Source: Octopus sinensis
Taxonomy: Eukaryota
NCBI RefSeq assembly: GCF_006345805.1
Contig: NC_043007.1
Span: forward strand, 37,634,001-37,698,000
Direction: 5' to 3'
DNA length: 64,000 nucleotides
Shown here: positions 33,750 through 63,861 of the stretch, one piece after another
How positions within the stretch are numbered: position 1 is the stretch's first letter
Layout of the letters: each line of letters opens with the position of its first letter
The notes under the pieces: model-generated
Told to the model about the DNA's origin: nothing
Seen by the model: the letters and a program-made list of their open reading frames with translations, nothing else
The model's database searches: none
Made by a program: the position numbers and the translations under genes

Positions 33750-33940
33750 ATTAATCTAGACAATGTCAAATGTTTACTGGTACTTGAATATATAAGCATA
33801 TTACATATGTATACATATGCATGATAAATATATATATATGTGAGTAGGTATATGATAATGTGTGTACATTGAAAGGTGATTGAAGACCGGTTCATAAAAT
33901 ATGCAAATATGTTTAATTATATAGTGCATATATACATATT

Positions 33941-34169
33941 TCACTCCTTCCATTTTGTATCAAAAAACCAATATATCGCAAAATGTAAGCCACCAGGTTT
34001 AGGCTCAGATTCATCCATCACAAACGCTTTAGCGTTTTTCACAGGGACTTCCAAAAGTTCAATCATTTCTCCTTCCTCTGGAACCCCTCCACCCTTGCTG
34101 ACCCTCATTTTGTCATCGATCTCAGCATAGAAAAAGGTAACGAGTGCACCTGTAGTGCTGACACCCCCT
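33941..34169 (-). CDS. NUDT14: NUDT14-like exon 5 (last coding exon)
   Basis: ttttgcag| then (R)GGVSTTGALVTFFYAEIDDKMRVSKGGGVPEEGEMIELLEVPVKNAKAFVMDESEPKPGGLHFAIYWFFDTKWKE-TGA. Confidence 0.92.
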
Positions 34170-34217
34170 CTGCAAAAGAGAAAAAGAACCAGTGTTAGTT
34201 TCAGATGTTTATACTCG

Positions 34218-34442
34218 TTTCTTTATTACCCACAAGGGGCTAAACATAGAGGGGACAAACAAGGACAAAGGGATTAAGTTGAATACATCGACCCCAGTGT
34301 GTAACTGGTGCTTAATTTATTGACCCTGAAAGGATGAAAGGCAAAGTCGACCTTGGCGGAATTTGAACTCAGAATGTAATGGCAGACGAAATACGGCCAC
34401 GCGTTTCGCCCGGCGTGCTAACGGTTCTGCCAGCTTGCTACC
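34218..34442 (-). mobile_element. tRNA-derived SINE family B
   Basis: gagctggcagaa..ttagcacgccgggcgaaa..gagttcaaattccgccgaggtcgactttgcctttcatcctttcggggtcg; about 8 copies in the window. Confidence 0.88.
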
Positions 34443-35554
34443 TTTTAGATGTTTATACTGCTCACTAAAAGTTTCTATACATGTGTGAATGCACATATAC
34501 ATACACACACACACACACACACACAAACACATCTGTGTTTGTTTAGAGTCACTCTGCATTTAACAGTTATGCTAGAGTTTCTGAAGCAAAGTGTTAACTA
34601 ATGGGTTGGAAGAGAGAGATAATTAACACGCACATATTTCACATTTATTTTTACATCCATTTTTTCCATGTTAGCATGGGTTAGATGAAAATATTATTCA
34701 GGCATTGTTCACAGCCAGATATCCTTTTTGTTATTAGCCTTTAGCTGTTTTTCAAGCAATGGATTTCTTGGACCACATTTCTTTGAAGGCAAAGCCAGTA
34801 GATGATTTATCAACAGAGGAAATGACATCATGGCTTACAGGTCAGTATTTTCAGAGAAGCACAAATATAAACAAACACAGACACAGACACACATACATAT
34901 ATATGTATAGCCAATTCGAATAAATTAATAAAATTAACTGAGAACAAGAGGACGTGCACAAGGAATGTATTAGCTTGATGTTTGGTGAAAAGAGAGAGTT
35001 TGATGCTTCAAGCATAGCTCTTTGTTGGAAAGGAGAAATCCTAAGATGGGGAAAAAAAAATCGCCAACAGCATGTGTAGTTACATTGCTGAATTTATATA
35101 TATTAACACATATTCTTTTATTCGTTTCAGTCATTTGATTGCGGCCATAATGGAGCACCGCCTGCGCCTGTGTATATATATATAATTTTAACTAACAGAA
35201 AGAAGTGAACTTGTTGGTGAGCAGCCAGTTGATGTTTTGTGGAGGCACGCTTCAACACCAGGGGGAACAACTCAGGCAGTCAACCATTTTCTTTAAGATT
35301 AACAGTTTCATGTGAGAATTAAGTACCTTCACTACAGAGAGTTGGAACAGGAAACGAAATGCCAACCTGTAAATTATATAGTTCAAGACATTATCGACAG
35401 AGAAATGTTTAGAGCTAAAAACCAAACATAATAGGTGCCATAAAATATCAGGTTAAATATCTAAAAATATATTCCTTCATGTAGCTAGAGCAAATCAACC
35501 ATCGCAGCCTGGTTCTTTCTAAGCCATATCTATAGATCAATTCATGTAGCTTGA

Positions 35555-35915
35555 TACTCTTTTACTCGCTTGTCATTTGACTGTGGCCATGCTGGAGTAC
35601 CGCCTTTAGTCAAGCAAATCGACCCCAGGACTTATGCTTTGTAAGCCTAGTACTTATTCTATCGGTCTCCTTTGCCAAACCACTAAGTTACGGGGACATA
35701 AACACACCAGCATCGGTTGTCAAGTGATGTGGGGGGGAGGAACAAACACACACACACACACACATACACATATATGATGGGCTTCTTTCAATTTCCGTCT
35801 ATCAAATCCACTCACAAGGCTTTGGTTGGCCCAAGGCTATAGTAGAAAACACTTGTCCAAAGTGCCACGCAGTGGGAATGAACCCAGAACCATGTGGTTC
35901 ACAGCCACTCCTGTG
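35555..35915 (-). mobile_element. SINE family A
   Basis: Homology to 17444-17840. Confidence 0.88.
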
Positions 35916-36295
35916 CTTGATAGACAAATACTATAAAATTAATCTGGATGACTGCAAGGCACTGTTCACCACTGAACATAGAAAGAAGAGGAGTCATGAT
36001 TTGACATTAAGACTTAGAGTCTTGATAACTCAAAATTTCCATGAGTCATTAGAGAAGAGAGGGATACCACTAGGAGAGAGGGGTACCTCTCTTGTTACTT
36101 ACCATCCAAAATAAAACATGCCAAAAATCAAAACCTGAATATTTTATGTCAGAATTATGGAAACATGCAAAATTAACCAGCTTTATCAAATTTTTTAATG
36201 CAAGAGAACCGAATGTAAAGATAGATATGTAATTAAACACCAACATTTAAATTCCTAAGATTTTAAATGGTTGAGGGAACCTTTTTCTTCCTTAC

Positions 36296-36509
36296 CTGTA
36301 GGACACAACTCTTTCAATATTATCCAAAGGCACTTCGTATCCACATTCTTCAAGGATCTCTGCCTGGACCACTTCCTGTAAGGAGATATTTTTGTCTACT
36401 ATGCCAGCACACAATTCGGTCGTTATTCCTAGTTCACCAGTGTACTTTGAGGTGTCAATCTTCTGAACTCCTTTCTCTTCATGCATGCAACTTCGGTTCA
36501 TGTATATGA
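36296..36509 (-). CDS. NUDT14: NUDT14-like exon 4 (Nudix box)
   Basis: tgtttcag|...|gtaag; (V)IYMNRSCMHEEKGVQKIDTSKYTGELGITTELCAGIVDKNISLQEVVQAEILEECGYEVPLDNIERVVSY(R). Confidence 0.93.
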
Positions 36510-37049
36510 CTGAAACAGTTTGATAACATTTACTAAGTTAGCTTAGTTCTACAAAACAGCTCAATATAAAGAAAAGATTGGCTAGGAAGACTTAGAATAT
36601 AACAGAGATAAAATGTAAAAATGTACAGCATCAACAGCAGCAGCCATTCAAGAATTTGGACCTGGAGATCTCCATTTCCAGCAACTTTGAGGGCCACCTC
36701 CCAGTGGTGTCGGGCGTCAACTACAACAAAATGATCAAATTTTTTCTTTTTCCAAGGTCTGGGGTCTCCTGCCCCTAAGCCCTAGACCATCACCTAATCA
36801 CCCTTACCCGCCTTGTTGCTTAACAACAACAACAACAACAGCAGCAGCAGTCAGAAGAGATTTTTTTTTGTGCTCTTGCAATTTGGTCCATATAAATCTG
36901 TTTGTCTACCTTGGTTACACTCTCTTTCTCTTCCAATTGGATAAGGTGTGTTATTCCTAATTCAAAAGTCTTCTATCAATCTCATTTTGTATTTGAGTAA
37001 AGTTAATTCTGCTTATGTCAAATTTACCAAAACTTTCAGGAATAAGTAT

Positions 37050-37452
37050 TTATTTCTTTATTGCCCACAAGGGCCCAAACAAGGACAGACAAAGAGATTA
37101 AGTTGATTACATCGACTCCAGTGTGTAACTGGTACTTAATTTGTCGACCCTGAAAGGATGAAAAGCAAAGTCGACCTCGGCGGAATTTGAACTCAGAACG
37201 TAATGACAGACAAAATACCTATTTCTTTACTACCCACAAGGGGCCAAACACAGAGGGGACAAACAAGGACAGACAAACGGATTAAGTCAATTACGTCAAC
37301 CCCAGTGCGTAATTGGTACTTGTTTAATCGACCTTGAAAGGATGAAAGGCAAAGTCGACCTCAGCGGAATTTGAACTCAGAACGTAACGACAAACAAAAT
37401 ACTGCTAAGCATTTCACCTGGCATGCTAACGTTTCTGCCAGCTCACCGCCTT
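37050..37452 (-). mobile_element. SINE family B with tandemly duplicated body
   Basis: Body/tail segment present twice (37050-37220 and 37220-37452). Confidence 0.85.
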
Positions 37453-38693
37453 TCAGGAATAAGTACTATTAATAGATTGTCTTAGAACGTTACAGTTTCT
37501 CATTATCTGGAGAAGGCAAAAAAGAAACTATTCCAATGTAGTCTTTTCTAGGTACAAACAAGATAAAATATTGTACAACCAAAAGAATACAGCCTCGGTT
37601 CAGATCCACTGTACACATTTTTGGAGGAAACGATAACTTTTTTATGTTATTATTTCTGGTGGAATAGGTTATGTTCAAAGCCATGCCAAGTCTTCCAATA
37701 CCTGCAAGATTAATATTGAAGTTCATCTTGAATAACTGCAAGTCAATGACTAGAGGGAAAGCAGGAAATTCCAGATGTTCATGGAAAAAAGGATTGGTCT
37801 TAGTGGTTAGTGCAGGGTTTGGTGAAATGTGCACACACAAGTTATAGTAGTAGCAACTGAAAAGGCACAATGAGATAGCACATGTGTGAGGGGTTGGAGA
37901 GTGCTGGTGAGCCGTTTTATGGTTGACATTTGGCTGGACTTCTACAGATTAAGGTGAGTTAATGCATAGAAAAAAAGGCGCACATACAAATGTAGAATCT
38001 GAAAGTCAATTATCCAATGTTCTTCTTTTAGAAAATATGTGCTGGAGCCCACAACTTGGGCCATAAATACATTCACTTGTATGTATATAGCCTGAAGATT
38101 TCTCTCCCTCCAGCATCACTCTCCGGGTCAATGGAGCACAGAGGTACTTCACCGCGACAAGGTACTTGTTGAATTAGCTGTTGACTCCGCAGTAGTTCTT
38201 CCACCCTTTGACGGGTTTTATCTTTCATCCCGCAGGGTGTCCAACAATCACCCTCCTCACCAAGCAACCTTAATGGGATTGCCAGTTTAGTCACTGACGA
38301 CCCGACCATGTGACAGGTTGTACTGATAAGCAAAAAGGATTGGATGACCATGTGTAGAAAACCTTTCTGTATATTTCTGTCCGATCTGGGGCTAAACATC
38401 AACAACACCAATGTCAAACACATTATCAATGAGACAAAAGTGAAACCCATGTTGTCACACTCACTGCTAGAAAAAACAACAAAATCTGTCTAAAATTACA
38501 GTTTAATTCATAAGAAGAAGGACACTTTGGACAATATAGTCACTGATATACAAAAAAAGATGAGATTGCCAGTAGAAGGCATATTGGAAAGTATTTTGTT
38601 TGAAATTCTAAGAATTCTACCAAACTACTACTACCACCACCACCATCACAGCAACAATAAAAACAAAAAAAAAACAAAAATAAAAACACTCAC

Positions 38694-38758
38694 CAGGACG
38701 GAATTGCTTGACAAACAACAAAACTTGTCGCTGCCGGTTGAACAACAAGACACAGACA
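38694..38758 (-). CDS. NUDT14: NUDT14-like exon 3
   Basis: tttacttcag|...|gtgagt; (S)VCVLLFNRQRQVLLFVKQFRP(V), 65 nt. Confidence 0.92.
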
Positions 38759-39124
38759 CTGAAGTAAAGATGTAAAGAAGAAAGATATATGTTTAGTTTT
38801 TATTGAAGCAAACAGATAGAAATTAAAATTACACACAATACAAGCAACTATAGTTACACTTACATATACAGTTTATTGACTGAGGTTGTACTAGAGTCTT
38901 ACCTGTCCTACACTGTACTAGAGTCTTACCTGTCTTATACTGTACAAGAGTGTTACCTGTCCTATAACAGGTTATATAGGTAACAATTATTATAATTATA
39001 CAGTTTTTAAAATTTCTTGGTGCATATAAACTAACAAAACAGAAACTAATTTTCAAAATTAAAATCATCATCATAATCATCATTATTAAATTAAAATCAA
39101 ATCAAATGCAAGAGCAATGCCTTA

Positions 39125-39410
39125 AAGGGTGTTAGTCAAAGAAATCATCCCCAGGACTTATTCTTTGTAAACCTATGCTATCAGTCTCTTTTGCTGATCT
39201 GCCAATTTACAGGAACATAAACACACACACACACACACACACATACACAACAGGCTTCTTTCAGTTTCTGTCTACCAAATCCACTCACAAGGCTTTGGTT
39301 GGCCTGAGGTCATAGTAGAAGACACTTGCCCCATGTGCCATACAGTGTGACTGAACCCAGAACCATGTGGTTGCGAAGCAAGTTTCTTACCATACAACAA
39401 TGCCTGCATC
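39125..39410 (-). mobile_element. SINE family A (partial)
   Basis: Homology to family A. Confidence 0.8.
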
Positions 39411-40371
39411 TACTATATTTGTAATAAATATATTATCAATAACAATAGTACTGTTTAGCTAACAGTAACAATAATACTACATTACATTAGTAATACTATT
39501 TTCAGAGTTAACTATCACTGTTGTAAGTATAAATTAATCTTATGTAAGCAAGCTATATGAAAATTATAATTATTGTAGCTATGTAACATTACCTGATATT
39601 GCACACAACATAGTGATATGTGTGTGTGTGAGAGAGAGAGAGAGTTTTTTTAACTTCTAGGTAAATGGGGCCTTTCTTTTGGCAAAGATATGCAGTCTAG
39701 GACATTAGCACATACTGCTATGGGTGTTTGTTGATTTGACAATGTTGTTACCTTATTCCACCCTCAGTTTTGACACAACCCTGTAAGTACAGAGACACAA
39801 GACCAATGAGAGAGAGAGATAGATAGAGAGAGATCCAAAAACAAAATGGGCATGGGTGCAAAACTGCATTGTTGGTGTTTGGTAAATGAATTTGGTAAAG
39901 GTGATGGGCTACCTTTTGCCTGATATGTTCAGCTTCATACCATAGCATGCTATCACAAGTAACTCTTTGCCACACTTTCCCATCAGACACCACCACTATT
40001 TCAAATGCTAGGGAAGCTTTCTGTTGTTGATCACACTTGTGCTTTGTAGAGTGTCAGCAAATATATTTGGAGTGTTGCTGCTCAGACCAAGTATATGTAG
40101 GTGATGATATCAACTGATACAGACAGTTCAGTATAGCAAACAATTTTGACTTCTACACCCAGTCAGAATCAGTGTGGAATGAGTGAGAAAGTCAAAAGAA
40201 GTTGTGTGTATCAAAACTGCATATAGTGACTTTTGTTGGAAGTGAGGTAAGTTAGATATCCTAAATGGAGGATGAAATAGGGTTGAACAGCGGCTGGTGG
40301 TTGAAGGCGTTTGGAGAATGACATGGCTAGTTGATAAATTTAGAGGCATGAGAGGTAGAGAGAATCATACA

Positions 40372-40646
40372 GTTCTATATTTAAGAGATGAGGAATTATA
40401 TACATTATTTACATATGACGAATATTTGTCCTCATCTTGTTTGTTGTTAACACGTTTCGGCTGATATAACCTCCAGCCTTCTTCAGGTGTCTTGGGGGAA
40501 ATTTCGAACCTGGGATCTCATTCCTAAGGTATTTTTCAATGTTATTATTATTATTACTATTGTTAGTATTCAGGTCACTGCTTGGAATCGAACTCGGAAT
40601 CTTAGGGTTAGTAGCACGCGCTCTTAACCACTACGCCATATGCCCA
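40372..40646 (-). mobile_element. Element with tRNA-Ser-like Pol III head (40573-40645) and hammerhead-like motif (40449-40491)
   Basis: A-box TGGCGTAGTGG and B-box GAGTTCGATTCC, then an (AAT)n linker, then GACAC-CUGAAGA-A-GGCUG-loop-CAGCC-GAAAC-GUGUU. Confidence 0.65.
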
Positions 40647-40754
40647 TAGTCTACATTAACAGGAACCCTCTGCTGCTGATATCCAAGTGAAAAACATGAA
40701 AGTAGATTCTAGATATTCAGAGATCACCCTTAAGAATGAAGCTGAACTATATAT

Positions 40755-41245
40755 AGGGTGTCCAAAAAAATTAATATCATTTAGGAGTACAGTATCATAG
40801 CTGGTTCTCACTCAAATGGTCTCAAATTTTAACAAAATGTGTAAAAACTAAGTTTGGATCAGGCATGCCAGTGATAATGACAATGTGATGTTGAAATGAC
40901 CACCATGTTCACCTGGCTTGACACCTTGTGATTTTTTCTTCTATGGGGCTATGGGAATGGACTGGTCTATATCCCACCTCTTCCTACAAGCCTAGGGGAA
41001 CTCTAGCACAGAATCACTGACGTGCTGGAGAATGTTACACAAGATATGCTACAGCATGTTTGGCAGGAGCTGGACTATTGACTTGACCTGTTTTGTGTCA
41101 CAGGCAGTGCACATATTGAACATTCGTGAAGCTTTGAGAAATCAGTTATAAAATTTACATCCCTCTGAATTTCTTGCTTGAATTTTGATAAATAAATCTT
41201 TTATTGTTCAATGTAAAGCCTATTTAATTTCATTTGTGTAGGACA
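40755..41245 (+). mobile_element. Internally deleted Tc1/mariner-superfamily element
   Basis: ta-gggtgtcc left end; degenerate WPPxSPxLTPCDFFLWGY motif at ~40898-40955. Confidence 0.65.
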
Positions 41246-41319
41246 TGTAGTTACTCAGATATTCACATTTCAAATGATGTCAATTGTTTGGGGACATTCT
41301 GTATATATATATCTACATA

Positions 41320-41630
41320 GTGCCGGTGGCACGTAAAAAGCACCATCCGATCGTGGCCGTTGCCAGCCTCGCCTGGCCCCCGTGCCGGTGGCACGTAAAA
41401 AGCACCATCTGTCCATGGCCGTTTGCCAGCTCCGTCTGGCACCTGTGCGGGTGGCACGTAAAAAGCACCCACTACACTCACGGAGTGGTTGGCGTTAGGA
41501 AGGGCATCCAGCTGTAGAAACACTGCCAGATCAGACTGGAGCCTGGTGCAGCCTCCTGGCTTCCCAGACCCCGGTCAAACCGTCCAACCAATGCTAGCAC
41601 GGAAAACGGATGTTAAACAATGATGATGAT
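41320..41630 (+). mobile_element. SINE-like family C
   Basis: Three gtggcacgtaaaaagcacc units plus core and tail. Confidence 0.85.
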
Positions 41631-41806
41631 ATACATATATAGATAGACAGTATACAGATAGAGATATAAATATACCCAAACTCTTATTTAATTGGTAAAA
41701 TCAGCTGAAACGTTTCTATAATACTGTACAAATAATCAATATAAGATGACAATAAATAATTACACACGTACATACACACACGCATATGTAAAATGGTTGG
41801 CATTAA

Positions 41807-42028
41807 CCCTTTAGTGTTTGCATTATTCTGCCAAAATTGATCCTTTTTTATTCACATTGTTTTGAACTAATCATGCATTATCTTGTAGCTATGAGATTTT
41901 TTTTGAGGTAGCTGTTAATTCATAAAGCAATATTGTAGGGTTGGTATGAGAGACCAGATATGGCCAGTTTGAACATAAAACAAGCAGAATACTTTTGGCC
42001 GGATATGGCTGGTTTAAATGCTAAAGGG
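41807..42028. mobile_element. piggyBac-like MITE (TTAA TSD)
   Basis: ttaa|cccttta...taaaggg|ttaa; relatives at ~45481-45700 and ~50808-51275. Confidence 0.75.
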
Positions 42029-42214
42029 TTAAGGGTATCAAACATACAGCCACAGAAACCAGCCCCTGTCAAACTATTAAACTTGTGCCAATATGGAAAG
42101 CAAACATTAAATGATGAGGATATGTCTATTAAGCTTTGTTTAATTTTTGCTTAAATAAGCACATAAGTATTGCTAGTGAGGGAAAATGGTAATGGGGGAG
42201 GGGGGATACACTAC

Positions 42215-42605
42215 TCTATTACTTGTTTCAGTCATTTGACTGTGGCCATGCTGGAGACCCGCTTTTAGTCGAGAAAATCGACCCCAGGACTTATTCTTTG
42301 TAAGCCTAGTACTTATTCTATCGATCTCTTTTGCCGAACCGCTAAGTTACGGGGACGTAAACACACCAGCATCGGTTGTCAAGCGATGTTGGGGGGGGGG
42401 GGGAGGACAAACACAGACACACATACATACATATATATACGACGGGCTTCTTTCAGTTTCTGTCTACCATTTCCACTCACTAGGCATTGGTCAGTCCGAG
42501 GCTATAGTAGAAGACACTTGCCCAAGGTGCCACGCAGTTGGAATGAACCCGGAACCATGTGGTTGGTAAGCAAGCTACTTACCACACAGCCACTCCTACA
42601 CCTAG
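42215..42605 (-). mobile_element. SINE family A
   Basis: Full-length homology. Confidence 0.9.
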
Positions 42606-42644
42606 GATATTTTAATATATAAGATACAATATACATATAAGCCT

Positions 42645-42743
42645 GGTGCGTGGCACCTTGGGCAAGTGCCTTCTACAATAGCCTCGGGCCAACCAAAGCC
42701 TTGTGAGTGGATTTGGTAGACAGAAACTGAAAGAAGTCCGTCG

Positions 42744-42778
<35 letters not shown>

Positions 42779-42985
42779 ATATATGTGTGTGTTTGTGTTT
42801 GTCCCCCCCAACATCACTTGACAACTGATGCTGGTGTGTTTACTTCCCCGTAACTTAGCAGTTCAGCAAAAGAGACTGATAGAATAATTACTAGGGTTAC
42901 GAAGAATAAGTCCTGGGGTTGATTTGCTCGACTAAAGGTGGTGCTCCAGCATGGACACAGTCAAATGACTGAAACAAGTACAAGG
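42645..42985 (+). mobile_element. SINE family A, 5'-truncated
   Basis: Homology; inverted relative to 42215-42605. Confidence 0.88.
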
Positions 42986-43084
42986 GTAATTATCAGCCAA
43001 CTCTGTGCTTTTGAATTTCTCTAGAATGAAAAAAAAAATCCCTTACTTGAGAAAGAGGGAAGAGTTTGTGACAGGAAGAGCATA

Positions 43085-43500
43085 TACTCTCTTTACTCTT
43101 TTACTCTTTTACTTGTTTCAGTCATTTGACTGCGGCCATGCTGGAGCACCGCCTTTAGTCGAGCAAATCGACCCCGGGACTTATTCTTTTGTAAGCCCAG
43201 TACTTACTCTATCGGTCTCTTTTGCCGAACCGCTAAGTGACGGGGACGTAAACACACCAGCATCGGTTGTCAAGCAATGCTAGGGGAACAAACACACTCA
43301 CACAAACACACACACGCATATATATACATATATACGACAGGCTTCTTTCAGTTTCCGTCTACCAATTCCACTCACAAGGCATTGGTCGGCCCGGGGCTAT
43401 AGCAGAAGACACTTGCCCAAGATGCCACGCAGTGTGACTGAACCCAGAACCATGTGGTTGGTAGGCAAGCTACTTACCACACAGCCACTCCTGCGCCTAT
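43085..43500 (-). mobile_element. SINE family A (CpG-rich, young)
   Basis: Near-identical to 59570-59980. Confidence 0.9.
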
Positions 43501-43639
43501 GGCTACAAAAAAATCCCACCTTAAATACACCCTGCCCCCACTACCATCTAACCCCATGTCAGTATGGGAAAACGGATGTTAAACGGACAAACAAAAAGTA
43601 GCTATGATTAATAATTTACAGTGAATAGACATTTCTCTT

Positions 43640-44330
43640 TTCTCTTTTACTTGTTTCAGTCATTTTGATTGTGGCCATGCTGGAGCACTGCCTTGAGTTG
43701 AGCAAATCAACCCCAGGACTTATTCTTTGTAAGCCTAGTACTTATTCTATCGGGTCTCTTTTGCCGAACTGCTAAGTTATAGGGATGTAAACTCACCAGC
43801 GATGTTGTCAAGCGATGTTGGGGGGACAAACACAGACACACACACACATATATATATCATCATCATCATCATCATCATCATTTAGCGTCCGCTTTCCATG
43901 CTAGCATGGGTTGGACGGTTCAACTGGGGTCTGGGAAGTCAGAAGGCTGCACCAGGCCCAGTCTGATCTGGCAGTGTTTCTACGGCTGGATGCCCTTCCT
44001 AACGCCAACCACTCCGTGAGTGTAGTGGGTGCTTTTTACGTGCCACCCGCACAGGTGCCAGACGGGGCTGGCAAACGTGCCACCGGCTCGGGGGCCAGGC
44101 GAGGCTGGCAACGGCCACAATCGGATGGTGCTTTTTACGTGCCACCGGCACGGAAATATATATACGACTGGCTTCTTTCAGTTTCCGTCTACCAGATCCA
44201 CTCACAAGGCTTTGGTCGGCCTGAGGCTATAGTAGAAGACACTTACCCAAGGTGCCACGCAGTGGGACTGAACCCAGAACCATGTGGTCGGTAAGCAAGC
44301 TACTTACCACACAGCTACTCCTATGCCTAT
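43640..44330 (-). mobile_element. SINE family A with nested family C copy (43857-44152)
   Basis: Family C interrupts the internal (TA) tract of family A. Confidence 0.85.
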
Positions 44331-44500
44331 GTAACAAGCAAAACAATTCTACCTTCACCAAACCATAAAACAAGTTACATTTTCCTTAGTACGTCCAGTT
44401 TTTGTCATTCATATAAATACATCATCACACATCTATCACCATTAGTTTTATGAATGTAAGAATCCTAAAGTAATATAATTTGATGAAATATCCATCTTAC

Positions 44501-44544
44501 CTATCAGCAGTTTTGATAAAATCCCAACTCTTTGCCTCACCATT
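44501..44544 (-). CDS. NUDT14: NUDT14-like exon 2 (canonical)
   Basis: tttttctctatag|AATGGTGAG...GATAG|gtaaga; NGEAKSWDFIKTAD(S), 44 nt; resembles human NGAQKSWDFMKTHDS. Confidence 0.92.
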
Positions 44545-44946
44545 CTATAGAGAAAAAAATTTTTATATATCAATATTATTAAATACAATTTATTGTACAT
44601 ATGACAAACCTATGGTATCTTTAATTTTATTTAATTTAAATAAGCTCTAAGCAGAAACGAGATAGTAATTTCTATTCACAAAGTACAATGCTAATTGTTC
44701 TACTTGTAGAAATTGAAGAAATCAACATAGTATCATCATCATCATCATCATTTAATGTCCGCTTTCCATGTATCTCCTGTACAGCAAGGAACCTGTTCAT
44801 ATCCATTCTTTCATACTTTAACCTCTCAACACTTAGCATTAAGCTACCTCCTTCTCTTTGAATTTGAAAATGTTGATCCAGTTACCCTTCCAAAATACTT
44901 TCCAGAGAGAGAGAGTGTGTGTATGTGTACATACTCTCTCTCTCTC

Positions 44947-45140
44947 TTACTACCCACAAGGGGCTACACACAGAGGAGACAAACAAGGACAGACAAACGG
45001 ATTAAGTTGATTACATCGACCCCGAAAGGATGAAAGGCAAAGTTGACCTTGGCGGAATTTGAATTCAGAACGTAACGGCAGATGAAATACGGCTACGCAT
45101 TTCGCCCGGCGTGCTAACGGTTCTGCCAGCTCGCCACCTT
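44947..45140 (-). mobile_element. SINE family B
   Basis: Homology to family B. Confidence 0.85.
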
Positions 45141-46217
45141 AAAATGTATGGGTACATATATTAGTGAAGGTGTGTAACCTAGTATTTAGGCTGTTGGGCT
45201 CCTGCAAGAGATAGCAAACCAAATCTTTCTCAAACTACACCTACTATCTAAAAAAAAAACAACAAAAAAACAGTCATTTTAAGACACATTGGTTAATGCA
45301 TTCCGTCATAGATTATGTCAAGAAAAAAAGACAAGATGGTTACAACTAGAATAATGTTTAATCATAAATTTGACGATTCTAATGGATCAGAGCTGTTGGA
45401 AGATAAACAAGGAAAAAGAATATAATGCTTCAGTTTAAAAAAATTTACCTCATAATTAAAAGAAAAAGACACCTCTGCTATTAACCCATTAGCATTTAAA
45501 CCGGCCATATCTGGCCTAAATATTTTACCTGTTTTATATTTAAATTAGCCAAACCTGACCTCTCACACCTATCCCACAGTGTCATTCTCAAAACTTAATC
45601 ACATCATCGAAATCTTCAAGTTATGAGACAATGCATGATTAACTCAAAACAATGTGAATAAGTATGTATTATATTTGACAGTAAGCTGAATGCTAAAGGG
45701 ATACATCACAAATTGAATAAGATTCAGCCAAATTACTAGCATCTATGACACCAGTCTGAATCTATGACATCCAAAGAACAAGAAATGTGGCTTAATTCTA
45801 ACCATTCAATTAGGTATCAGCAGGTTATTGGTCAGCTTTAACAGAAATGACCAGGGTTACTTAATAACAACACCGATATTGAAATTTATGTGGACTAAAA
45901 TCATAAGATCTTGACTTTTTAGACACCTCTAGGGAAGTGGGGGCAGGCAGTATAGGACCTGACTTAAAGTGTGATGACCCATCCAACCAACGTCTGTACA
46001 GAAAATGGATGATGATGATGGTGATGAGAATGTAAGTAATTTATGACATGACCTAATCAGTGTTGGTCCTTCTTATGTTCCTTCATTGGCTCAGTAACGT
46101 ACTGATACTTAGCTTACTCTTAAAACCTATTCTCAAATGATAGCTTTCATTTCATCTGCAGAGGCGCTTTTTTTTTGTTGTTTTTTTTTTTGTAGAGTTT
46201 TATATTAATTTATTTAA

Positions 46218-46435
46218 CCCTTCCATTACTGTATTTATTTTGAGATGCTCTGTGTTTCAATTAATTTTAAATATAACAAAGAATTTAGTAAAATAACTTA
46301 GTTATCATTAAGATAGTGTTAGAAACATAAATTGTGGCAAAGGTTTGGTGGAAGATTTTATTTCAGAATTTTTGAAAACAAGACATTTGTACTACAGAGC
46401 CAGAGGCGGTTTCAGCTGATATGGTATAGAAAGGG
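46218..46435. mobile_element. piggyBac-like MITE, second family
   Basis: ttaa|ccctt...aaggg|ttaa; sibling at 55656-55877. Confidence 0.75.
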
Positions 46436-46556
46436 TTAAGTTCCTGTTGTTGATGGATGTTTGTTTCACTCTTTTAGTTTTTGATTCTTATTGTATAGTA
46501 TAATTCACACTCAGAAATAAAAAGTAAACAACCAACTATATAATATTTTTTTTTTT

Positions 46557-46774
46557 TACTACCCACAAAGGGCTAAACACAGAGGGGACAAACAAGGACA
46601 GACAAACGGATTAAGTCGATTACATTGAGCCCAGTGCGTAACTGGAACTTTAATTTATCGACCCCGAAAGGATGAAAGGCAAAGTCGACCTCGGCAGAAT
46701 TTGAACCCAGAACGTAACAGCAGACAAAATACGGCTACGCATTTCGCCCGGTGTGCTAGCGTTTCTGCCAGCTC
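46557..46774 (-). mobile_element. SINE family B
   Basis: Homology to family B. Confidence 0.85.
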
Positions 46775-47822
46775 AATATATTACAATAAACTCCTTTCAA
46801 TATCATATTTCTGTTAAAATGCAATGCCTTTGTTTCAGTTAATTTTGAAATAATGAAGAATTTAGTAATATAACTTTGTTGTTATTAAGAGGGTGTTTGG
46901 AACATGAATTAACATGAAATTCTGGTGGAAGATTTTAATTCAGATCACTTTAACCCTTTAGTTATCATATTTAGTTATATTGTTGGAATGCACTACCATT
47001 ATTTTTTGAAAATATTAATGAATTTAGTGAACAAAAATACAGATCAAAAAACCAAATTAGATATAAAACTATTAGTTCTTAACACAACTATCTAATATGA
47101 ATTACATGCATAGAGAGAGAAAAAAAAGCAACAGAATCGTTATTAACAACAAAATACAAACTAAAACTAACACAGGAGACACACTACAGTTTTAAAAACA
47201 ACAGTTGCTAATTGCTGAAAGTAACTTCGAAGTTAACAGTTAAAATTTTAAACTTGGTGATGATGATGTTATCAGTATCAACAACATTCCCATTATCCAT
47301 GCTGCCTACTATCAACTGCACCAGAAAAAAATTGCCACACATACTTGTACCCTTAACATAATTCTCATGCAGATCAGCACAACACTGTGTGAAACAAGGC
47401 TGGCTCTTTGAATTACAGGTAGAGCATACCTCACAGGCTTCCATTCAGTTTCTATCCTGCACAATTTCACTCACAAGACTTGCATTGACATGAGGTTATG
47501 ATGGTAGAAACTATCTGAACCTTATGATTGGAAAGTGAAGTTTTTAACCCTTTAGCTATCTCTGTATATTATTACAAAATATTTTTTAGGTTAAACATTG
47601 TGGATTGTCCACAGCATCCATGGGTGTGTGTGTGTACGTATACACACACACTTGAATTTAAACAAGGGGTTGGGATAAAGTAATCATCCTTGTCCTCTTT
47701 CTCCTCTTCTCCATCACCATCAACATCATCTTATATTTGCTTTCCATGAGCTGGATGGATTGTTGTGTCCTGATTTATTTTTTATCTGTAGTTATTACTT
47801 TCCTCGATGGGCCAGAGGACCA

Positions 47823-48061
47823 GGTACTACTTAAGATGAGTGGTCCCAGTGAGCGCACTCGCGCTAGCTAATCGTGACTAGTCGATCCTGCAACAACTAC
47901 CTAGAAAAGTAAATAAAACACAAAATAATTTTTTATACAAAGTAAATAGTTTATGTGTTTTATTTAGTTTGCTAGGTAGTTGTTGCAGGATCAACTAGTC
48001 ATGACTAGCTAGCGTGGATGCGCAAGTACGTGCATCGGGACCACTCTTCTTAAGTAGTACT
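47823..48061. mobile_element. Palindromic MITE with 8-bp TSD (Merlin-like)
   Basis: TIR ggtactacttaaga.gagtggtccc; TSD gaggacca (47815-47822, 48062-48069). Confidence 0.85.
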
Positions 48062-48424
48062 GAGGACCATACCTTGCATATACATTTCATTGATGACTCA
48101 GTGTCTATGGCTGGGTTCCTTTCCTAAAAGTAATCACTCTACAATGACTGGTGGTAGGATGTCAATACATATAACAGAGTTAACTTTTATTTGAAGTTGA
48201 AGATTCACTAATGAGTTTTGGACTTCAGTTTTTCACTTAAAATGGAATTCAAAATTTTAAGTATCAGACTTTGGCATTAGGAAAGGAGGTCACAGAAACC
48301 ATCGAATGTATGCCAGCATGGATGGTGGACATTAAATGATGATGATAATGATACTCTTATGATGTCCCAAGGTCAGAGGCCAATAGTTTATAGCTTTATA
48401 AATTTGAACACAAGTATTTGAGAT

Positions 48425-49757
48425 ATAGCAATGTGATGGAAAATGGAAAGAGAGAGTGATGAAATGAAAGTGAGTGTGATGGTAACATATGATGTGAAAG
48501 GCCCTGCCTAAATCCATCATACTGGGTAATTAGGATTTTCTTCATATATAAATTCTTGCATATACATGCATAAAGATATGTACAAACAAGGAACTTTTTC
48601 TTTTACTATGGCTTAATTAGATGAGGAAGAGTTTAGCCTAAAGTCTTTGATGATAGTGGTGGTGCTGCTGCTGAAATTATGATTCATAGATTATTGCAGC
48701 AGGAAGCAACAGAACTCAATCTATAGAGCCAACCATCACACCTGAAACCAGGTGTGAATACGTGCATCAAAGACAAGTTCGTTAAATAATATCTGATGCA
48801 ATTTTCATGCAATTACTTTTGCATCAGATGTCCCTTAATTTACAAGGACATTACTCATGTACATGTATTTTTCAAATTCTAAAAACATAAAAGCTATGTT
48901 ACATGTGGATATATTTTAATATTGGGATAAAGAATCTCTTTCATAAGTCATTTCTCAGTGAACCTGCTGACTTTGATGACTCATTGCTTCTTGGCTGCCG
49001 CCAGTATGCCTCATCAATCATCCATTTGCACATGTGAACTCTTCCAATATCTACCTGTAACACCATGCAAATAATAAAGCAAAAAACACAAATTTGCACA
49101 CAGGTAGACACACACACACACATACAAGAAAAAATATTAGTGAAATTACCTACCTATCATGTTCTTTTAAAACATCTATGACTTTCTCTCGGTTATTCTA
49201 GAGAGGGGGGTAAAAATTTATAATTACAATCTAGTCGTTCATGATGACGCAGACAAGATTTCATCATACAACAATGATTTATTTGTTCTACAAACTACAA
49301 CTGCTATGGCACATCCCACTGTGGCCGAGCCAATGAGAGAGAGAGAGAGAGAGCTATTATACTGTTACTTGACTTGTTAGATATGTTAGCTAAATGTTCC
49401 TTAAAATTTCACACTTGTTTTAAATAGGAAAAAAAAGGACATATTGGACAATGTAGCCTTTGATATACAAAAAGACTGGTGGGTCATGGCTGGAACATTT
49501 AAGATGGTAGGTCTGCTCAACTAGGGCTGACTTTGAGCTAAACTACACTGCGCTTCCTCATCTAATTAAGCCATAGTAAAAGAAAAAGTTCCTTGTTTGT
49601 ACATATCTTTATGCATGTATATGCAAGAATTTATATATGAAAAAAGTCTTAATTACCCAGTATGATGGATTTAGGCAGGGCCTTTCACATTATATGTTAC
49701 CATCGCACTCACTTTCATTTCATCACTCTCTCTTTCCATTTTCCATCACATTGCTAT
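48425..49757. repeat. Inverted repeat pair (48425-48629 / 49553-49757, extendable ~16 nt inward) with ~920-nt loop
   Basis: atagcaatgtgatggaaaatgg...attagatgaggaag is the near-exact reverse complement of cttcctcatctaat...ccatcacattgctat. Confidence 0.92.
49154..49197 (-). CDS. NUDT14: Duplicated alternative exon 2 of the NUDT14-like gene
   Basis: ttttacccccctctctag|AATAACCGA...CATGATAG|gtaggt; 44 nt with the same phases (0/2) as exon 2; NNREKVIDVLKEHD(S). Confidence 0.7.
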
Positions 49758-53417: not shown

Positions 53418-53626
53418 AAGAGAGAGAGAGAGATGACCTAAAGAAGACGGAATGATGGTAGATTATGTCAGCTATGGACAAATCTGAGTCTACCACTCAT
53501 ACATGTGTCTTGATAAAAGAGAGAGAGAGATGACCTAAAGAAGACGGAATGATGGTAGATTATGTCAGCTATGGACAAATCTGAGTCTACCACTCATACA
53601 TGTGTCTTGATAAAAGAGAGAGAGAG
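53418..53626. repeat. ~97-bp exact tandem duplication bounded by (GA)n
   Basis: gatgacctaaagaagacgg...gtcttgataaaagagag occurs twice. Confidence 0.9.
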
Positions 53627-54299
53627 AAATAGAATAAATTAGGGGGCAGTAGAATACACAAAGGTCCAATGCTATCGCTCACTACACGGTGTAAATCTTG
53701 AGTGTCAGAGAGATGAGAAGGCCAGACAGATCCAATGCTGTTCACAGTTACATGGAAGCATAGAGTAAACGAACTGGACTGGGAGTGAGTAGAGAAAGTG
53801 TAAGTGATGGACAGATGTGTGATAGAGGAGAGGGTACAACAGGGCAAGGGAATAGCTGATGGGGATTTAACAAGGATGTATTAGGTAAGAGAACTCTCTC
53901 CCTCTTTCTATATTTTATAACATGGTTTCTGTATATGTCACTTTAGTGTTGTGCATTCATAACAGTGTGATATAATACCATGGAACAGGGTAAAGCACCA
54001 ACTGTCTCCACTTGTTTTCCCAAATACTCTGCCAACAATTGTAACCAATCCAAAACAGCTCTCTACGAACTATAACAACTTCTCAACAATTTCCCGCAAC
54101 TCCATAAACTCACAAACGACACCTTTCAACTTCCTGTGATTTCTCATCTGTCACTCTCAGTTAAACATGCTGCTGCTTATACGAATTCGGTTAGTCCATT
54201 CCCAAGAGGGTGCCATAATTCTCGCCATGACATCCCTTTTGAGATTTGACTTCTGGAGGAAGTGCAACTTTTTTATTTAATTTTTTTTTCTTCATCACC

Positions 54300-63780: not shown

Positions 63781-63861
63781 CTGTTTGTAATGTAACCTGA
63801 CGGGTTTAATATATCTGGATTTGTCGAATGTCGACACGGTCACGTCGCTAATGTTCTCCAT
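63781..63861 (-). CDS. NUDT14: NUDT14-like exon 1 (start codon)
   Basis: acaaATGG; MENISDVTVSTFDKSRYIKPVRLHYKQ|gtacgt, 81 nt; resembles human [27 protein letters not shown]. Confidence 0.92.

Follow-up and report, generated by a model that had tools for sequence, protein, structure and literature searches.

Tandem exons of which a transcript carries one or the other are known from enzymes such as pyruvate kinase, where they distinguish the M1 and M2 forms, and from Dscam-type genes of invertebrates, whose docking site/selector system relies on a pairing site in the intron. Further enzymes with such exons (ATE1, OGDH, P4HA1 and ACOX1) are treated in a human tandem-exon catalogue, in the available passages of which the oldest events, 21 of 236, are dated to Bilateria and none carries a cnidarian date (PMC8373072). 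Here we analyzed an exon pair of this kind in NUDT14, a Nudix hydrolase gene contained in a 64,000-nucleotide stretch of the Octopus sinensis genome (assembly GCF_006345805.1, contig NC_043007.1, positions 37,634,001 to 37,698,000 of the forward strand), which is called the window below and to which octopus coordinates refer. The pair resembles those of the catalogued enzymes in its equal length and phase, in the small number of residues changed within a folded enzyme and in its great age, and differs from them in also being present in anthozoan cnidarians.

The octopus gene is orthologous in sequence and fold to human NUDT14 (UDP-glucose/ADP-ribose pyrophosphatase; PDB 8OTV and 9GZV), among whose substrates the available part of PMC5688067 names ADP-ribose, ADP-glucose, NADH and Ap3A. 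As described in the accessible sections of PMC11089510, an inhibitor, not a substrate, is stacked between Trp34 and Tyr17 of opposite chains of the human enzyme and bonded to Asp35, and Trp34/Asp35 correspond to Trp46/Glu47 of NUDT5. Arg51 of NUDT5, which touches N3 of the base as well as the deoxyribose, belongs to the other subunit than Trp46/Glu47 (PMC3203587, in the portion available). NUDT5 and the GDP-mannose hydrolase NudK of E. coli resemble NUDT14 in being dimeric nucleotide-sugar hydrolases with a site shared by two chains.

Two copies of exon 2 in the octopus NUDT14 gene

A complete NUDT14 gene lies on the minus strand of the window. Its exon 2 is present twice in tandem, and the reading frame can be completed with either copy. 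Our overall reading, which we consider reasonably probable, is that one copy is chosen and that the gene thereby gives rise to two Nudix hydrolases differing at the edge that binds base and ribose. The coding features are as follows.

63781..63861, minus strand: NUDT14 exon 1, coding part (81 nucleotides; ATG at 63861, donor at 63781), bearing Tyr17
49154..49197, minus strand: alternative exon 2B, the upstream copy, with Ile34, Glu39 and His40; yields P0004 (RefSeq X2)
44501..44544, minus strand: alternative exon 2A, the downstream copy, with Trp34, Thr39 and Ala40; yields P0003 (RefSeq X1)
38694..38758, minus strand: exon 3 (65 nucleotides; acceptor at 38758)
36296..36509, minus strand: exon 4 (214 nucleotides), with the Nudix box and the early stops of the products containing both or neither exon 2
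33941..34169, minus strand: exon 5, coding part and stop, joined to exon 4 in contigs of all four sequencing runs compared

As the first-pass annotation of the window had described, exons 2A and 2B are each 44 nucleotides long, bounded by AG and GT, lead from phase 0 to phase 2, and begin with AAT and end with GATAG; with 21 of 44 nucleotides identical they form a homologous tandem pair. Both the acceptor and the donor of octopus 2B are strong, and the 2B region has a single match in the octopus genome. As a control for chance resemblance, a profile built from 105 Trp-bearing exon-2 peptides was scored on open 44-nucleotide candidates flanked by AG and GT/GC. The two exons scored 30.0 and 19.7 bits, and the next-best of the 89 candidates lying in the interval from exon 1 to exon 3 scored -1.2. 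The window as a whole held 181 candidates of this length on the minus strand and 179 on the plus strand, and the profile found no third exon-2 copy among them. This control and the annotation in three octopus species detailed below bear out the duplicated alternative exon proposed earlier.

Joining exon 1 to exons 3 to 5 through 2A or 2B yields 210 amino acids in each case, identical to the RefSeq isoforms X1 and X2, respectively, of O. sinensis. The frame shifts predicted for the other combinations were also found: with both exons 2 joined, translation stops after 81 amino acids, and with neither after 58, at positions in exon 4 that are 202 and 183 nucleotides, respectively, before the last junction. 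Both distances exceed the 50-55 nucleotides of the nonsense-mediated decay rule. Splicing likely picks one exon-2 copy per transcript, and transcripts with both or neither copy would be cleared by this decay. The idea that the frame enforces mutual exclusion holds in so far as the pair is frame-locked; the frame cannot block joint inclusion and can only mark such transcripts for decay. Among the 21 runs listed, none recorded as RNA, four were compared with the region 33800-49400, where intronic repeats dominated the matches; it was from these that the exon 4 to exon 5 junction was recovered.

Residues distinguishing the two exon types

NUDT14 is the best match of the octopus protein both in sequence (E 7.5e-47 to human) and in fold (template modelling score 0.90 to human). 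Tyr17, Asp35 and the Nudix box with its catalytic glutamates, the box being common to both isoforms, are kept, and the match to Pfam PF00293 is weak and below cut-off. Trp34, which is expected at the base site of NUDT14 orthologues, is present in 2A but not in octopus 2B (Ile); the gene is an orthologue nonetheless. In the human sequence whose structure is solved, Trp34-Asp35 and Thr39-His40-Asp41-Ser42 occur together, whereas octopus divides them between Trp, Thr and Ala40 in 2A and Ile, Glu and His in 2B. The histidine of the human THDS motif is hence kept by 2B, as had been noted, and 2A is the copy without it. Octopods seem, from these peptides, to have distributed Trp34 and His40 over the exon pair; His40 is present in 101 of 109 non-2B peptides, with Ala in octopus 2A and Ser in Argonauta.

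Residues were counted in 117 distinct peptides with Asp or Glu at position 35, which include related, not independent, species and stem in part from a search with a 2B query. The 2B class, recognized here by its acid, comprises eight peptides (8 of 117), all with Glu or Asp at human position 39; for six of them, isoform pairs or names likewise establish an alternative form. Asp42 was found in seven of these eight and in none of the 109 others. Trp34, present in 108 of the 109 non-2B peptides, is retained in six of eight 2B-type peptides, including those of corals, anemone and snails, and is lost just in octopus (Ile) and Mytilus (Val). The conserved change in 2B, as far as the aligned peptides tell, is therefore the acid at 39 together with Asp42 and not loss of the tryptophan; the proposed replacement of a conserved Trp is correct for octopus and Mytilus and does not extend to the other 2B peptides. 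Octopus 2B shares Glu39-His40-Asp41 with the 2B exons of snail and coral. In a set of 140 segments taken from 50%-identity representatives, Glu39 was found in six, Asp42 in two and both in two, the latter being closest to heterobranch snails.

Predicted structure of the 2B protein

The model of the 2B protein exhibits the whole NUDT14 fold (predicted local distance difference test score 95.8), with human NUDT14 (9gzv_A) as its best match (Z 26.5, root-mean-square deviation 2.0, 209 residues aligned). Exon 2 corresponds in this model to strand 30-38 plus the subsequent turn, and would thus supply Trp34 and Asp35, with their base stacking and hydrogen bonds, as well as position 39. The earlier placement of the Trp-Asp segment at the base site agrees with the Trp34/Asp35 contacts, which the accessible text of PMC11089510 describes for the inhibitor. 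Counting five residues on, position 39 of NUDT14 would be the equivalent of NUDT5 Arg51, and the family profile, independent of the NUDT5 register, aligns it gap-free with Arg44 of NudK. In contrast to the arginine of NUDT5 and NudK, NUDT14 has a small neutral residue here in 2A and an acid in 2B. An acid at 39 would be expected to retune the recognition of base and ribose.

The exon pair in other animals

The octopus protein cluster has six members, which are the 2A and 2B forms of O. bimaculoides, O. sinensis and O. vulgaris. The 2B peptide is identical in the three species; because their proteins are alike at all but 3-10 of 210 sites, the identity of these 14 residues is weak evidence alone. 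Isoform pairs that are identical outside exon 2 and the junction codon were present in Mytilus (four pairs), Haliotis rubra, Babylonia areolata and two Pocillopora species, with residue differences tabulated for seven pairs, and isoform X1 of Nematostella is of the 2B type. An Atlas search with P0208 returned NUDT14 clusters only. The suggested look at relatives thus found 2B in three octopuses and, beyond the cephalopods, in other molluscs and in cnidarians, and by this sequence evidence the exon pair is older and taxonomically wider than the cephalopods.

Genomic copies were also found in a pattern scan of metagenome contigs, which gave 21 loci, nine of them NUDT14 (all coral-like by similarity) and 12 chance matches. 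The pattern required Trp and Glu-His-Asp-Asp, so that it was blind to 2B of the octopus or mussel type and preset part of the conservation seen. Contig L021 contains exon 1, 2B, 2A, exon 3 and a fused exon 4/5, and contig L007 contains exon 1, 2B and 2A, in both cases with 44-nucleotide exons in the order and phases of octopus. The fusion of exons 4 and 5 (L021:6076-6545), by which the last intron is missing, is unlike the octopus gene. In the more distant L006/L017, alignment to L021 is confined to exon 1 and to exon 2B with its edges, and 19-22 of the 24 pattern-free bases of the 2B exon are identical across four contigs. Contig L003 extends 3.3 kb downstream of 2B without 2A, which may reflect the end of the contig or a longer intron.

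An intronless 2B-type NUDT14 reading frame was identified on the minus strand of L010 (1046-1690), in apparently genomic sequence from a coral-like source. It is 85% identical to P0045 and 77% to P0043 and groups with these two (support 100/99), away from the intron-bearing coral genes; all three are stand-alone 2B genes that lack introns and in which the Nudix box is intact. The simplest reading is that L010 would be a retrocopy of an E1-2B-E3 mRNA, in which case a 2B mRNA was once spliced. Retroelement endonuclease-like sequence, recognized by eye, follows the L010 copy.

Two further observations concern the octopus assembly. In intron 1 (window 53421-53627) there is a perfect 97-bp tandem duplication with 100% identical copies, which could be a recent event or an artefact of the assembly. 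A second NUDT14 gene is located at L023:1697-2421 (G000:C12467, about 198196-198920, plus strand) on a 520-kb contig, with intron positions as in the octopus gene, introns of just 29, 26 and 23 nucleotides, and one 44-nucleotide exon 2 with Trp kept and without an acid at 39. This gene probably comes from a small-intron (dicyemid-like) parasite contaminating the assembly and not from the octopus.

Possible means of avoiding joint inclusion

Steric exclusion was ruled out by the 4.6 kb between the two exons, and minor-spliceosome sites by the donors GTACGT, GTAGGT and GTAAGA, which do not have the form of the U12 donor consensus. A scan for docking/selector pairing as in Dscam-type genes, extending 300 nucleotides from the exons in octopus and L021, detected no intron element complementary to the flanks of both exons; two of 20 pairings beat all 12 shuffles, which is about the chance rate. 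Decay of frameshifted transcripts is a likely filter in octopus, judging from the positions of the stops. In L021, just a few bases separate the early stops from the last coding junction downstream of them; the usual decay rule is inapplicable there, and another control is therefore needed, perhaps consisting of a weak A-rich 2B acceptor together with a conserved donor flank. The coral 2B acceptor is weak and A-rich. Directly behind the 2B donor, the initial 16 bases of the intron (L021:3277-3292 and the equivalents in L003, L006 and L007) are identical at 14-16 of 16 positions and the intron diverges beyond them, which makes this flank a possible splicing control element.

Age of the duplication

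The origin of the pair was analyzed with 15 columns of 21 exon peptides. Cnidarian and mollusc 2B unite in the free tree (ultrafast bootstrap 80), and constraining the pair to one origin gave the best fit and the lowest cost, ahead by 5.0 log-likelihood units. One origin before the cnidarian-bilaterian split appears the better supported history, because the exon, the order of the copies and two rare residues are all shared. The duplication would then probably predate that split, octopus and mussel 2B would have lost the stacking Trp later, and multiple losses in several lineages are required.

A number of observations weigh against this history or against the functional reading of 2B. A 2B member was present in just five of the 21 clusters opened. 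None is annotated in Lingula, Gigantopelta, unionid mussels or Bradybaena, nor among 13 squid-like assembled proteins, lobster, ticks, spiders and a beetle, these being absences from annotation and not from DNA. Octopus 2B, a long branch, falls with the 2A group in the free tree, and it carries Ser42 instead of Asp42. Glu39 occurs without Asp42 in four of the 140 representatives (P0268, P0261, P0285 and P0249, three of them nematode-like or unclear and one insect-like), and an acidic pocket may have become fixed separately in these lineages. No 2A or 2B junction was seen among the matches listed for the four repeat-swamped runs, a result that is silent on 2A versus 2B; expression of 2B is suggested by the annotated isoforms and the intronless copy. 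In addition, the alignment behind the 2B fold model consists mostly of 2A types.

The tree statistics also leave room for separate origins, in which exon 2 would have been duplicated at least twice (in anthozoans and in molluscs) and the upstream copy would have converged on Glu39/Asp42 as a useful pocket. Separate origins were not rejected by the approximately unbiased test, either in the simple (p=0.34) or in the stricter form (0.16), and dropping columns 39 and 42 removed the signal for one origin. Without these columns, the resemblance between cnidarian 2A and 2B is on a par with that between orthologues (52.1 for cnidarian 2B with cnidarian 2A versus 51.0 for 2B with 2B), and cnidarian 2B lies nearer to 2A of molluscs, at 42.6, than to their 2B, at 34.1. 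No 2B was found in the echinoderm or vertebrate records examined, as in those of Lingula and arthropods, and NUDT genes gave no match in the available passages of the human catalogue and its one supplement, which do report that ACOX1 exons with similar residues arose three times separately (PMC8373072). On the other hand, convergence would require the same exon to be duplicated, in the same order (seen in octopus, L021 and L007 and implied by model P0162), and to acquire the same two rare residues twice, and the best tree favours one origin. We regard separate origins as quite possible, if somewhat less than an even prospect.

Proposed functional consequences

In the reading of one gene with two enzymes, splicing would choose 2A or 2B, and the Glu or Asp39 and usual Asp42 of 2B would turn a neutral pocket wall acidic. 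The preference of 2B would move off the 2A set (ADP-ribose, ADP-glucose and NADH in human) towards substrates with amine or hydroxyl donors or positive charge. A substrate switch between the 2A and 2B proteins is likely on these residues, although naming any one class as the gain of 2B would be a guess, and one expected to miss. Both chains contribute to the site, and a 2A/2B heterodimer would accordingly have hybrid pockets, in octopus with Trp34 of 2A next to Glu39 of 2B. The fullest version of this scenario, in which a duplication older than the split was retained by corals, anemones, snails, mussels and octopuses to serve as an active-site charge switch giving a second substrate class, with hybrid-pocket heterodimers and a coral-like 2B retrogene, is tentative, its prospects falling just below even.

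Alternatively, 2B could be a weak or inactive subunit, its activity lowered by loss of the stacking Trp and by an acid that faces the substrate, and could turn the enzyme down in 2A/2B heterodimers. The near-universal ligand-stacking Trp34 of non-2B peptides and a site composed of both chains (PMC11089510 and PMC3203587, in the parts available) are compatible with this, as is the faster evolution of mollusc 2B exons (mean score 38.2) than of 2A (52.4), but the Trp is retained in most 2B peptides, and the coral-like stand-alone intronless genes suit an activity of their own, so that we consider it unlikely. That octopus 2B is a functionless decaying remnant or annotation noise is very improbable: the missing junction, the loss of Trp34 and Asp42 and the slight weight of 14 identical residues among three close octopuses speak for it, and the intact frame, the strong splice sites, the isoform annotated in three species and the Glu39-His40-Asp41 shared with snail and coral speak against it.

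Significance of the exon pair

Alternative exons of NUDT14 were not found described in the literature searched (listings, with subscription papers outside the search), and the case appears to be a known kind of splicing in a gene for which it is undescribed beyond isoforms in automatic annotation. Few cases of alternative splicing are conserved between animal phyla, and in the available passages of the human catalogue no event is dated earlier than Bilateria (PMC8373072). The pair shared by octopus and coral is either one of the oldest known splice switches or a double convergence on two residues; a single origin, if true, would predate the oldest, bilaterian events of that catalogue, and the NUDT14 exons may be among the oldest splicing switches of animals. 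The pair likely gives one gene two substrate pockets, and the two isoforms, differing at 7-10 residues beside the base site, offer a natural two-state test of the physiological substrate of NUDT14.

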